This document shows positions 6,559 to 17,867 of a DNA stretch of 32,850 nt, piece after piece (position 1 is the first letter of the stretch; each line of letters begins with the position of its first letter). The notes under the pieces were generated by a model. That model saw only the letters and a list, made by a program, of their open reading frames with translations, was not told where the DNA came from and ran no database searches. The translations under genes and the position numbers were made by a program. Source of the stretch: a virus (lineage: Duplodnaviria; Heunggongvirae; Uroviricota; Caudoviricetes); IMG/VR virus record IMGVR_UViG_2548876941_000012; one strand, given 5' to 3'.

Positions 6559-6824
6559 GTGAATTAAAGTGTCGAATTAATGGCAATCAGATAGAACCGT
6601 GTGCGGTACTGGCAAAAGCACTCGAATATGGAAATCCAGCCTTTAAGAGTAAAGGCATATTTATCCCGGAACGCGTGAATATAAACACCGGCGAGCCAGG
6701 CTTAGACATTGCTCAAATTCACTCCGGCCAATATGTCGGTCGTGGTGTTGCCATGTGTTTTTGCCCGTTCTGTGGTGAAAGTCTGAAAACATGGAAAAAG
6801 GAGGCAACCAGTGAGCGAGATTAA
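6555..6824 (+). CDS. hypothetical protein with Cys motif
   Basis: Track ORF 6492-6824. GTG at 6555 has SD GGAGG upstream and overlaps the upstream stop; contains CFCPFCG and an earlier KC...PC pair, suggestive of a small zinc-ribbon. Confidence 0.5.
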   Translation: MSELKCRINGNQIEPCAVLAKALEYGNPAFKSKGIFIPERVNINTGEPGLDIAQIHSGQYVGRGVAMCFCPFCGESLKTWKKEATSERD

Positions 6825-7308
6825 CTATCAGGCACTGCGTGAGGTGGCAGAGGCCGCGAAGGGGGATACGACGTGGCAGAACCTACAGGCTTTTCATGCT
6901 GCGGCTACGCCGGAGGTTGTGCAGGCGTTGCTGGATGAAAACGAAAGACTGTGTCGCGATCTGATAGCTCGTAATGGTGAGATTGAAGGGCTTCGGGAGT
7001 GGGCAGAAGAACTGGAGGCACGGGAGGTGGCTTTGCCAGTAGCGTCATGCATTGTTGAAGATGGATGCATGTGTGTTGATGGGTTCAGTGAGTATGTAGG
7101 TCACTCGCTACCTGATGGAATGCATGAGCTTTATGCTGCCCCGCCAGCGTCGGTAGTGCCGGAAGGACTAGTTAAAGCAGTGCGTTTCTATGAACAGGTA
7201 AAGTGTGAGAATCCGCCAGTCGAAACCGGAGCATGGAAAGACGCGGTTGACTGGGTACTCAACGAGGCTTGCCAGGCTGTAAATATTGACGCCAAAGGAG
7301 GTGCGTAA
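6811..7308 (+). CDS. acidic protein with Ead/Ea22-like N-terminal region (tentative)
   Basis: 165 aa, GTG start with SD GGAGG. N-terminus NYQALREVAEAAKGDTTWQ and ATPEVVQALLDENERL resembles, from memory, the N-terminal region of lambdoid Ea22/Ead-family proteins. Confidence 0.5.
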   Translation: MSEINYQALREVAEAAKGDTTWQNLQAFHAAATPEVVQALLDENERLCRDLIARNGEIEGLREWAEELEAREVALPVASCIVEDGCMCVDGFSEYVGHSLPDGMHELYAAPPASVVPEGLVKAVRFYEQVKCENPPVETGAWKDAVDWVLNEACQAVNIDAKGGA

Positions 7309-7478
7309 TGCGTGTAGCGTTTATCGGTTTATTACCATACCCGACTCGTTTTTGGGCTTCTGCGCTAATTGCAAAGCCACATGCCCTGATGGCTGACAGC
7401 ATCATCCCGGCACCAAAGCGCCATACCGGTATTGCTGCTGCACGACGCGAAGCAAAGAAACGCAGGAGAGCAAAATGA
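7308..7478 (+). CDS. small hydrophobic/basic peptide (56 aa), below the ORF-track size cut-off
   Basis: ATG at 7308 overlaps the upstream stop (TAATG), strong SD AGGAGG 7 nt upstream; stop overlaps the next start (ATGATG). Hydrophobic N-half (AFIGLLPYPTRFWASALIA) and Arg/Lys-rich C-terminus. Confidence 0.4.
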   Translation: MRVAFIGLLPYPTRFWASALIAKPHALMADSIIPAPKRHTGIAAARREAKKRRRAK

Positions 7479-7663
7479 TGAAAAACCGTAAGGCAAGACT
7501 GCTGATAGCAAAGCCAGGGCAACTTATCCGTATCTCAAATCGACTTGTTGTTCGCTATAGATATCTTGGTTTTAGGGAGTGGTCCTCTATTCGTTTTTAC
7601 GGTGTCTGGAGAAACAGAAGCGCGACACAAAACCGCTGGAAGAATCACACTAACGCAAAGTAA
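7475..7663 (+). CDS. small basic protein, function unknown
   Basis: 62-aa ORF, SD AGGAGA upstream; Arg/Lys-rich. Confidence 0.45.
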   Translation: MMKNRKARLLIAKPGQLIRISNRLVVRYRYLGFREWSSIRFYGVWRNRSATQNRWKNHTNAK

Positions 7664-7680
7664 TTAAATAATAACCAATA

Positions 7681-7708
7681 GCAGACCAAAAAGTATTTTT
7701 TGGTCTGC
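7681..7708. promoter_or_regulatory. perfect 12-bp palindrome (GCAGACCAAAAA gtat TTTTTGGTCTGC) with adjacent TTTTGGTC repeat
   Basis: Read directly; lies in a 67-nt intergenic gap inside the early region. Stem contains its own A/T tract, so it could be a bidirectional terminator or a protein-binding site. Confidence 0.4.
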
Positions 7709-7730
7709 CAAAAGTGATGTTTTGGTCATT

Positions 7731-8009
7731 ATGAAGATTGAACAAATCGGAATGGCAGCTTTCAGGCAACAGGCTGAAAGCGGTGGCGTGGATGAGTTCG
7801 TCGTGCAGCGGTTCGGTGGTGTGTATCATCTATTCGCTGTGAATCGCCGCGCCGGGGTGTCCTATTTTCTACAGGAACGTCGTGGCGATTACAAGACATG
7901 GCTGTCTCTTGACCGTGCCGCTGCGTTCTTGTCAGGGATTGGCGTTTCACGTTTTACCGTGCGTTTTGAGGATAACAAACATGCTGAAAAAGATGATCGG
8001 GGCCATTAA
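7731..8009 (+). CDS. hypothetical protein
   Basis: Track ORF 7722-8009 (TTG); first ATG at 7731. 92 aa; overlaps the next gene by 29 nt. Confidence 0.5.
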   Translation: MKIEQIGMAAFRQQAESGGVDEFVVQRFGGVYHLFAVNRRAGVSYFLQERRGDYKTWLSLDRAAAFLSGIGVSRFTVRFEDNKHAEKDDRGH

Positions 8010-8379
8010 AGCCGGTCAGGCGTATCTGGGGTGGGATGATGCCCTTTATCGCCAGACGCTGGCCCGCCTGACCGGTAAAACCAGCACCACACGCTGCAAT
8101 CTCGATGAACTGCGCATCATCCGGGAATACATGCACGAACAGGGATTCCCGCGCAAGGCACCCGCTGGTAAAGGTCGCCGCCCTCGTGTTGCAATGAGCA
8201 GAAAATCAGTATTATCCAAAATTGAAGCGTTGCTGGCTGATGCCGGTCGTTCCTGGGCGTATGCAGAAGGACTGGCATCTCACATGTATAAGCAACATGT
8301 GATCGAATGGCTGACGGATGAACAGCTTTTTGGAGTGATGGTGGCGCTGGTTAAAGATTCAAGAAGGAGAAATCAATGA
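7981..8379 (+). CDS. GemA-like protein (DUF1018-like, tentative)
   Basis: ATG at 7981 within the larger track ORF 7882-8379; 132 aa; position just upstream of the Mor/C-family gene as gemA is in Mu; sequence features (AYLGWDDALYRQTLARLTGKTS) recalled as GemA-like. Confidence 0.55.
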   Translation: MLKKMIGAIKAGQAYLGWDDALYRQTLARLTGKTSTTRCNLDELRIIREYMHEQGFPRKAPAGKGRRPRVAMSRKSVLSKIEALLADAGRSWAYAEGLASHMYKQHVIEWLTDEQLFGVMVALVKDSRRRNQ

Positions 8380-8852
8380 TGAAAAAATGGTTGTTTTGTT
8401 TAGTAGGGGTTATTTTCTCTTGTTCTGTGCTAGCACAGACAGAGGAACAGGCGCAAAAGGAACTGAAACGTTATCAGGATATGAAGCCATTGGCTGAACA
8501 GATGCTTCGGGAAAGTGGAAAACTTTATTACGCTATGCCAGAAGCTGCATCGCAGTATCAGCAGGGAAATATTGAAGAGTGGAAGAATATCAAAAAAGGA
8601 CTAAAACAACTGGATGAACAGGCCAGTAAACTGGGGGACGACCCGCTTGATCCTGTGTATGGTTCCTGCATAAAAATGAAAAACCAGCTACAGGATTACT
8701 GGTCTAACGTTATCAGGGATGACAGGCAGTTTCTGGAGCGTTCAAGAAATCAGTTTAAAGAATATCGTATGGATTGTTTTGATTCGTTTGTTTTTGGTAA
8801 AGAGCAAATAGAATCAAGAAAAGGCCTGGTTATTCTAGACCTGACTAAATAA
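8376..8852 (+). CDS. secreted or periplasmic protein of unknown function (moron candidate)
   Basis: 158 aa with N-terminal signal peptide (MMKKWLFCLVGVIFSCSVLA, likely cleavage after VLA); visibly AT-richer than flanking phage genes; followed by a strong intrinsic terminator. Confidence 0.7.
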   Translation: MMKKWLFCLVGVIFSCSVLAQTEEQAQKELKRYQDMKPLAEQMLRESGKLYYAMPEAASQYQQGNIEEWKNIKKGLKQLDEQASKLGDDPLDPVYGSCIKMKNQLQDYWSNVIRDDRQFLERSRNQFKEYRMDCFDSFVFGKEQIESRKGLVILDLTK

Positions 8853-8862
8853 GACTTAGTTT

Positions 8863-8890
8863 AGCCCCTGCCATGCAGGGGCTTTTTTTG
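8863..8890 (+). terminator. rho-independent terminator
   Basis: AGCCCCTGC cat GCAGGGGCT stem-loop followed by TTTTTTT. Confidence 0.8.
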
Positions 8891-8894
8891 TGGT

Positions 8895-8923
8895 CTGTAC
8901 AGGCGATCATGTATGGCTATAAT
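8895..8923 (+). promoter_or_regulatory. promoter-like element with consensus -10 and weak -35
   Basis: TATAAT at 8918-8923; the hexamer 17 nt upstream is CTGTAC (poor match to TTGACA); about 30 nt upstream of the Mor/C-family gene. Confidence 0.45.
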
Positions 8924-8952: not shown

Positions 8953-9420
8953 ATGCAGACCTTCAGTGAAACAGATCTTCGCGATGCGCAGGCACTGCTG
9001 CCCGATTCCGTGCAGCAACTGATTAGCGTGATTGGCTTCCCCGCCCTGACCCGGTTGATTCGTTCTTTTGGTGGCGTGACGTTAAGCGGTAAAACCGGCG
9101 TACACGCCGAACGCACCGGCGGTGTCCATGCCCTGTTACATGACGTGCTCACCGAAGACGAAATCAACAAACTGATCCGCTTTCTTGGCGGTGCTCCGTT
9201 TTACATTCCCCGTTGCGATCATGCGTTACGTGCCCTGCGTAACACCCGTTTTATGGCTGATTTACAGCAGCATGTAAAAGACGGATGCTCACACCGGCAG
9301 GCGCTGGCACTGCTCTGTCCCCGTTACGGCATTTCAGACCGGTACGCATGGCAGCTGATACACCGACGACAAAAACAGACTTCGCTGAAAAGCCCCACCC
9401 AGGTGGGGCTTTTTGATTAA
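8953..9420 (+). CDS. Mor/C-family transcriptional activator
   Basis: 155 aa; LGGAPFYIPR motif and C-terminal HTH-like LCPRYGISDRYAWQLIHRR resemble Mu Mor/C proteins; position between early region and lysis genes. Confidence 0.7.
   Translation: MQTFSETDLRDAQALLPDSVQQLISVIGFPALTRLIRSFGGVTLSGKTGVHAERTGGVHALLHDVLTEDEINKLIRFLGGAPFYIPRCDHALRALRNTRFMADLQQHVKDGCSHRQALALLCPRYGISDRYAWQLIHRRQKQTSLKSPTQVGLFD
9391..9415 (+). terminator. rho-independent terminator overlapping the 3' end of the Mor/C-family gene
   Basis: AGCCCCAC ccag GTGGGGCT stem-loop followed by TTTTT, ending 3 nt before the stop codon. Confidence 0.7.
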
Positions 9421-17842: not shown

Positions 17843-17867
17843 CGTTTTTAAAAGGGTTTTAAAAACG
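17843..17867. repeat. AT-rich perfect palindrome (CGTTTTTAAAA ggg TTTTAAAAACG)
   Basis: Read directly; lies in the roughly 200-nt non-coding gap between G-like and I-like genes; followed by a T-rich tract. Confidence 0.6.

Follow-up and report, generated by a model that had tools for sequence, protein, structure and literature searches.

The window analyzed here, the whole 32,850-nucleotide stretch of IMG/VR record IMGVR_UViG_2548876941_000012, matches, at 99.6-100% identity, a Mu-like prophage of E. coli O127:H6 E2348/69, whose insertion point is eutC, annotated as truncated (NC_011601.1 around 2,715,600; L001 1-334). Nothing on this prophage was found in the literature. The plus-strand gene order begins with transposase A/B-like genes, followed by small accessory ORFs, an Ea22-like gene (6811-7308), and two ORFs of 56 and 62 aa. 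An intergenic gap (7664-7730) then extends, as the sequence-only reading had it, from the stop of the 62-aa ORF (7475-7663) to an ATG at 7731, and behind it come a 92-aa gene, the GemA/gp16 gene, a 158-aa ORF, a canonical terminator (8863-8883), and the Mor gene (8953-9420). The same reading placed the gap between a cluster of small ORFs and the GemA block. It does coincide with the left edge of a conserved module (see below), but the gene immediately 3' of the site is the 92-aa gene, with GemA second.

On the upstream side, positions 7300-7510, which comprise the 56-aa ORF and the first part of the 62-aa ORF, share about 88-90% identity with ea22-neighboring ORFs of phiV10, lambdoid and Stx-converting phages, and P1-like plasmids or phages. 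Given this resemblance to lambdoid and P1-like ea22 neighborhoods, the upstream side is regarded as a mosaic accessory segment, i.e., a lambdoid accessory segment within a Mu-like prophage. On the downstream side, the slot between gemA and mor holds in the window a 158-aa ORF (8376-8852) with a signal-peptide-like N-terminus, while in relatives it is empty or occupied by other ORFs (339, 477, or 525 nt), so that the 158-aa ORF resembles a moron-type accessory gene. The region 8863-8923 carries a strong plus-strand intrinsic terminator, AGCCCCTGC-CAT-GCAGGGGCT followed by a T-run. A promoter-like TGTACA-16-TATAAT lies after this terminator and just upstream of mor, which may here have its own promoter, unlike the gemA-mor overlap in Mu. 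Other perfect palindromes of the window include one of 12 bp at the mor 3' end (9388-9413, AAAAGCCCCACC-CA-GGTGGGGCTTTT), which, with its flanking A- and T-runs, looks like a bidirectional terminator, and two in the late region, of 13 bp (29369-29398, GGTATTGCCGTTC-CGCT-GAACGGCAATACC) and 11 bp (17843-17867, CGTTTTTAAAA-GGG-TTTTAAAAACG).

Within the gap, the sequence confirmed the perfect 12-bp inverted repeat reported earlier, composed of GCAGACCAAAAA (7681-7692), a 4-nt loop GTAT (7693-7696), and TTTTTGGTCTGC (7697-7708). On the minus strand, the stem grows to 14 bp (7679-7710) when G-U pairs are counted. The direct repeat TTTTGGTC is likewise present in two copies (7698-7705 and 7720-7727), the second starting 11 nt past the end of the palindrome and not 10, as had been stated. 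Overlooked at that stage was a second, weaker dyad, CCAAAA gtgatg TTTTGG (7708-7725), and a repeat search returned 7708-7727 as a weaker copy of 7686-7705 with a 22-nt period. The whole element spans 40 bp, made up of two 18-bp CCAWWW-N6-WWWTGG dyads with 4 bp between them, which repeat every 22 bp, or about two helical turns (Table 1).

Table 1. Features of the element and the adjacent genes (positions in the window)
Feature	Position	Strand	Remark
AT-rich left flank TTAAATAATAACCAATA	7664..7680	+	Left edge of conserved module, mosaic breakpoint
Palindrome, 12-bp arms and 4-nt loop	7681..7708	.	Dyad 1 plus symmetric flanks GCAGA/TCTGC
Dyad 1 core CCA-N12-TGG (CCAAAAAGTATTTTTTGG)	7686..7703	.	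Triplet spacing fixed in 12 compared lineages
Spacer TCTG, 4 nt	7704..7707	.	Length constant, sequence free
Dyad 2 core CCA-N12-TGG (CCAAAAGTGATGTTTTGG)	7708..7725	.	22 bp from dyad 1; ends 5 nt before ATG
Second TTTTGGTC	7720..7727	+	3' half-site of dyad 2
phrog_7844 gene, 92 aa, no Pfam	7731..8009	+	Constant partner of element
GemA/gp16 gene	7981..8379	+	Overlaps end of 92-aa gene; next module member in Mu-like relatives

The palindrome had been judged unlikely to arise by chance, and the counts bear this out. Of 200 dinucleotide-shuffled windows, four contained any perfect inverted repeat with arms of 12 bp or more and a loop of 10 nt or less, and CCAAAA-N4-8-TTTTGG was observed twice against 0.03 expected; considering in addition the folding z-scores given below, chance is an unlikely source. 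Within the 32.85-kb window, the strict motif CCAWW-N8-WWTGG has no other copy, and it is likewise single in each related locus, so a regulon-like spread of the motif elsewhere in the prophage was rejected. The same holds for GACCAAAA and the dyad motif, neither of which is found away from this site, be it in the window or in the related loci, and a dispersed repeat of the multi-copy REP or MITE kind was discarded on this ground. In addition, the consensuses of IHF, Fis, CRP, FNR, LexA, RutR, FadR, and sigma-54 do not seem to fit the element.

Of 5,426 complete E. coli genomes, 58 carry the site. The BLAST alignment starts at window positions 7663-7668 for more than half of the E. coli matches listed, and the 13 E. 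coli loci compared show three unrelated upstream contexts, which converge about 20-27 nt before the palindrome. Since the homology starts and the upstream contexts meet at this place, the element is part of the downstream module, at the left edge of which it lies. The commonest E. coli form is a perfect 28-bp palindrome (GCAGACCAAAACATATGTTTTGGTCTGC); at its center, the window has G in place of A and a paired C:G to A:T change. The arms are nearly constant and the six central bases variable (CATATG, CATGTG, CATGTT, CATGTA, CATATA, TATATG, and AGTATT), and the center of dyad 2 varies as well (GTGATG, GTAGTG, GTAATG, ATGATG, and GCGATG). Arm changes on one side only were seen four times, three of them keeping a G-U pair on the plus strand and one losing it, which is too few to decide on pairing. 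Moreover, the symmetry in this clade reaches 5 bp past the dyad (GCAGA/TCTGC). The four half-sites being near-identical (GACCAAAA-like), and the left flank GCAGA mirroring the spacer and the first base of dyad 2 (TCTGC), dyad 1 becomes in the E. coli clade a long palindrome with a stable hairpin. The long perfect palindrome is restricted to this clade.

The variable center also bears on gene calling. In most E. coli relatives it reads CATATG, and a gene start called at this ATG, equivalent to window position 7695 (e.g., L002 1546 and L156 2501), yields a product of 104-105 aa (cluster P0003, 337 members). The window center, AGTATT, has no ATG, and other variants place the ATG out of frame. The longer start is probably mis-called, a point for annotation, since many genomes begin the downstream gene at this non-conserved ATG. 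A conserved small upstream ORF was rejected too, the ATGs at the palindrome center being in frame, out of frame, or absent.

Protein searches gathered the family of the 92-aa gene into 17 clusters at 90% identity, with diverged members in Leminorella, Intestinirhabdus, an enterobacterium, and assembled contigs of public sequencing runs. The upstream regions of 12 lineages, with about 62-100% protein identity, were aligned on the conserved protein start MK.E..GM. The pattern CCA-N12-TGG-N4-CCA-N12-TGG is exact and ungapped in nine of the 12 lineages and off at one or two triplet bases in the other three, and it ends 2-11 nt before the ATG. Nine of the 12 triplet positions are invariant in this comparison; by column, the triplets are kept in 9-11 of 11 lineages, and the interior columns fall to 4-8 of 11. 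The base or two beside each triplet is A/T-rich, while divergence is close to random in the remaining N12, the N4 spacer, and the two flanks. No indels were found within the 40 nt, whereas the upstream flank, in its length too, and the spacing from the ATG vary freely. Deviating triplets are not compensated on the partner side (L147 TGC/TCA, L152 TGC, L154 CGG, and L014 TCA). The pattern was not recognizable in L035 (55% protein identity) and was not found by eye in L169 (about 30% identity); genome, metagenome, and extra viral scans had added the latter, a distant relative, and one further close lineage (L036). As the triplets and their spacing are retained where the surrounding non-coding sequence is unalignable, purifying selection on the element itself is implied. 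Judged from the alignment, the feature under selection is the four CCA/TGG triplets together, alternating in orientation, rigidly spaced, and with A/T-rich neighbors, and the palindrome is not the conserved unit.

The genomic surroundings change around this unit. In L150 and L152-L154, the gene and the site lie just before a small-terminase gene (Terminase_2), with gemA-mor absent downstream, and in L152 and L153 Mu gp6-like, SSB, and HTH genes are found upstream. The element thus accompanies the gene behind three unrelated E. coli upstream modules as well as in non-Mu phage contexts, and the 92-aa gene is its sole constant companion. In phage Mu, the region upstream of gemA is different, with a divergent gp15 and a GC-rich hairpin (GGCGGTGTTGCAGCACCGCC, Mu 8193-8212, L161 1694-1713) directly before the gemA Shine-Dalgarno, and the 92-aa gene is lacking; tblastn against 50,697 phage records returned no homologue of this gene. 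Most viral-contig matches to GACCAAAA-N-TTTTGGTC were consistent with chance or came from an unrelated GC-rich virus repeat. IMGVR_UViG_3300035661_000038 (L048, L051, L063, L072, and L077) is an unrelated GC-rich 82-kb contig with at least nine copies of a 22-bp palindrome, GACCAAAAAGCGCCTTTTGGTC, which constitute a dispersed repeat. One further contig (IMGVR_UViG_3300028965_000008, L158 5942-5981) has the same tandem architecture, CCAAAAGTGTTGTTTTGG-CTTA-CCAAAACGATCGTTTTGG, a pair of CCAAAA-N6-TTTTGG units; no phrog_7844 gene is nearby, and what follows about 110 nt downstream is, as read from the ORF sequences, a Phd/Doc-like gene pair. These tandem units may be a coincidence or an unrelated operator.

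It is conceivable that the site has no dedicated function and is a quasi-palindrome perfected by template-switch mutation at a module junction, which would serve as a joint for homologous recombination. The site does sit exactly at the mosaic breakpoint, the long palindrome is clade-specific, and the paired C:G to A:T change at the center is the kind of double change that template switching yields. However, 12 triplet positions and their spacing are kept amid unalignable non-coding sequence, and we consider this explanation quite improbable.

An intra-operon terminator, one of the roles put forward from the sequence, found no support on the transcribed strand. The transcribed plus strand has no U-tract 3' of the stem (tail CAAAAGUGAUG / CAAAAGUG), and an intrinsic terminator on this strand was rejected accordingly; moreover, the site lies between co-oriented early-operon genes and not at the end of a transcription unit, with the canonical terminator 1.1 kb downstream. 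The terminator scan flags only the minus strand, where a 14-pair stem (7710-7679) is followed by the tail TTGGTTATTA / UUGGUUAUUA. Considering also that the minus-strand hairpin is the more stable one (see below), a minus-strand or bidirectional intrinsic terminator might keep antisense transcription arriving from the right out of the early operon, or else attenuate the early transcripts. Yet the minus-strand tail is interrupted and not conserved (relatives have GCTTGATT and ATTTGATT), the stable stem is lacking in diverged relatives, and no minus-strand gene lies nearby or to the right of the site, the annotated genes from 7589 (L001 coordinates) being all on the plus strand. A terminator of this kind is very improbable, the least probable of the explanations weighed here.

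An internal promoter with its operator would be another way to read the region, the AT-rich flank and the dyad center then providing a weak promoter for the 92-aa/gemA block, independent of the early promoter, with the dyads as operators. The promoter scan returned ATCACA-17-AATAAT (7644-7672, matching at 9 of 12 positions), from which transcription would start at the palindrome, and a weak -10-like ATAAT in the left flank is partly conserved, many E. coli-clade variants having a similar motif 6-9 nt before GCAGACC. In addition, good -10 boxes overlap the dyads in L149 (TTTAAC-17-TATATT) and L150 (TATAAT inside dyad 2). Against this, a position-weight scan of 21 variants found no sigma-70 promoter at a conserved position, and most of the scores were at background (4-6 bits). 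The -35 of the window candidate falls in the non-conserved upstream module, and several relatives have an upstream ORF that runs to the element or ends within it, which leaves no room for a promoter; the absence of the 92-aa homologue from Mu and its different gemA upstream region also speak against it. We regard this possibility as improbable.

The hairpin was considered next to a role in RNA. A 37-nt hairpin folds with -17.1 kcal/mol on the plus strand (z = -7.4) and -19.5 kcal/mol on the minus strand, with z about -7.5, the plus-strand stem of 12 bp including five G-C pairs, and so forms a stable stem-loop. Folding z-scores range from -4.5 to -8.9 for the window (-4.6 in the element comparison) versus -0.75 to -2.6 for the diverged lineages. 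The long stable hairpin is a feature of the E. coli clade. Two pairing schemes were compared with 500 shuffles of the 12-lineage alignment. The tandem two-hairpin scheme showed no excess covariation, with 71.4% of cells paired versus 71.1% in the shuffled alignments, a level that 252 of 500 shuffles attained; in L150 and L152-L154, dyad 2 (CCATTT...TTTGG) pairs over 3 bp only. The nested scheme, in which site 1 pairs with site 4 and site 2 with site 3, reached 77.4% versus 72.8%, a value matched by 16-18 of 500 shuffles and lying within the stated false-positive range of the tool for related sequences. The gain comes from U:A to A:U swaps at two adjacent pairs, one in a single clade and the other in the same clade and L147. 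Rfam gave no match above the gathering score (best 21.4 bits versus a gathering score of 48.4), and a known RNA family was rejected.

The element could accordingly be read as an RNA element of the polycistronic early mRNA, with one or two hairpins just ahead of the AUG serving as a translational operator, an RNase processing site, or a stability barrier. As an operator, it would bind the gene product or else a host factor, or would simply occlude the ribosome-binding region; as a processing or stability element, it would uncouple the 92-aa/gemA block from the variable upstream genes. The intercistronic place, 2-11 nt from the AUG, is the typical one for translational operators, and no clear Shine-Dalgarno is present before the 92-aa gene in the E. 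coli clade, while other lineages have a GGA inside dyad 2. The very stable E. coli-clade hairpin, the three of four one-sided stem changes that retain G-U on the plus strand, the weak covariation under nested pairing, and a weak likeness of the 92-aa protein to an RNA-binding fold (see below) add to this side. Furthermore, the symmetry that runs past the dyad in the E. coli clade speaks for a hairpin under selection. The lack of a promoter, the abutment on the start codon, the clade-specific extension of the palindrome, and a protein model without sign of a DNA-binding fold favor an RNA element. However, no pairing scheme is kept across the lineages, the diverged lineages have weak folding z-scores, and the triplets are conserved as sequence and never as covarying pairs; the loop lengths are constant, which is atypical of hairpins, and an Rfam match is lacking. 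A stem of 12-14 bp is also short for a typical RNase III substrate. The processing site suggested earlier may hold for the E. coli clade, with its very stable hairpin, but pairing in distant relatives is no better than in shuffles. All in all, an RNA element is the main rival to the reading favored below, a serious possibility though on the unlikely side.

The 92-aa protein matches PHROG 7844 (phrog_7844), a family of function unknown, and has neither a Pfam family nor a sequence match in the PDB. Its AlphaFold model (pLDDT 81) has the strand/helix order b-a-b-b-b-a-b. The best structural neighbors in the PDB are weak (E about 3e-3), namely, the RNA-binding ribosomal protein eL38 and the FtsH N-domain, and those in BFVD are uncharacterized phage proteins; no helix-turn-helix DNA-binding protein was among the structural matches, and the protein has no Cys zinc-finger motif.

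The reading we favor, tentatively and with somewhat less than even confidence, is that the element is the recognition site of a sequence-specific protein and exerts an operator-like control on the adjacent gene, with the own product of this gene as the most economical binder. Of the early proposals, the binding site of a phage or host factor fits best, with the difference that it would be made of four rigidly spaced triplets, the palindrome not being the conserved unit. Since the dyad symmetry resides in the sequence without covariation and indels are not tolerated, we infer a symmetric protein that recognizes the element as duplex DNA and not as RNA. As in DNA operators, the inverted half-sites are kept as sequence, and the rigid N12/N4 spacing is compatible with helical phasing. 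A probably dimeric protein would occupy the four half-sites side by side, and once bound would reduce the expression of the adjacent gene by impeding read-through transcription or the loading of ribosomes. As the 92-aa gene alone always accompanies the site, its product is the most economical candidate, which, by binding its own upstream site, would be autoregulatory. Next to the element, promoter-like matches are weak and at non-conserved positions; given the lack of a consistent promoter and, in several relatives, an upstream ORF that reaches the site, an operator here would need roadblock action, which is unusual. Going one step further, and relying on the structural model, the phrog_7844 protein might be a new small sequence-specific nucleic-acid-binding autoregulator with a distantly eL38-like alpha/beta fold and no sign of a helix-turn-helix, its operator being 2 x (CCA-N12-TGG), and the pair might constitute a portable self-regulated cassette across Mu-like and other enterobacterial phages at the boundary from early to middle/late expression; we put this forward as a speculation that is rather unlikely as a whole.

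Several known systems offer comparisons with the element. TyrR boxes (TGTAAA-N6-TTTACA) and paired ARG boxes are tandem 18-bp dyad operators with three to six specified end bases and a free center, the units of which lie a few bp apart with a 21- to 22-bp repeat on one helix face, an arrangement that favors cooperative multimer binding. The element shares with them the 18-bp dyads, the free centers, and the 22-bp tandem repeat, but specifies CCA/TGG instead of TGT/ACA or the ARG-box consensus; moreover, it has no overlapping promoter and only a candidate regulator, and it is intercistronic and abuts a start codon. The late-promoter activator sites of P2, 186, and P4 (TGT-N12-ACA), bound by Ogr/B/Delta, are found at about -55 and several times per genome. 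Here, the likeness lies in the geometry of 3 bp-N12-3 bp, the regulatory region of a temperate phage, and a small associated protein, whereas the triplets are others, a single tandem pair is placed directly before an ORF, and the 92-aa protein lacks the Cys zinc-finger.

Phage translational operators at start codons are known from Mu com-mom, T4 regA and gene 32, and the MS2 coat-replicase, in which the conserved feature is an RNA structure or a single-stranded motif. Like these, the element is located just 5' of an AUG in a polycistronic mRNA, is capable of forming a hairpin, and is linked to a small candidate autoregulator; unlike in these, the pairing of its hairpin is not conserved, and the dyad symmetry at the sequence level is. 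REP elements and the RNase III sites of T7 early mRNA are intercistronic hairpins for stabilization or processing. A stable intercistronic stem-loop in a long phage operon is common to both, in the E. coli clade only, but the element is single-copy, with a stem of 12-14 bp that is absent in diverged relatives.

Finally, the idealized gix site contains CCAAAA-N6-TTTTGG, and a 26-bp Din-type crossover-like site, TTCTCGAAAACCTTGGTTTGGGAGAA, is found elsewhere in the window, at 32156-32181, inside the ORF 31880-32530, a tail-fiber gene. The AAACC-NN-GGTTT core has its only match in the window at 32167-32178 and is lacking at 7681-7708, where each half-site, when aligned by hand, has one nt more than at 32156-32181. 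On these two grounds, a Din-invertase crossover site at 7681-7708 was rejected. In addition, the units of the element, unlike gix, hix, and pix, are in tandem and do not flank an invertible segment, and they also occur in phages of another type. The site at 32156-32181 itself suggests a crossover site of Gin/Hin/Pin type, with an invertible tail-fiber segment to the right of the window.

The element is previously undescribed, yet it is a conventional kind of cis-regulatory motif and overturns nothing known. It marks a recurrent module junction in these prophages. The phrog_7844 gene that it accompanies is positioned immediately ahead of gemA-mor in the Mu-like prophages of pathogenic E. coli and, in other phages, ahead of the terminase genes, i.e., at the handover from early to middle or late expression, and if the element is a protein-recognition site, it would provide the first functional handle on the phrog_7844 family.
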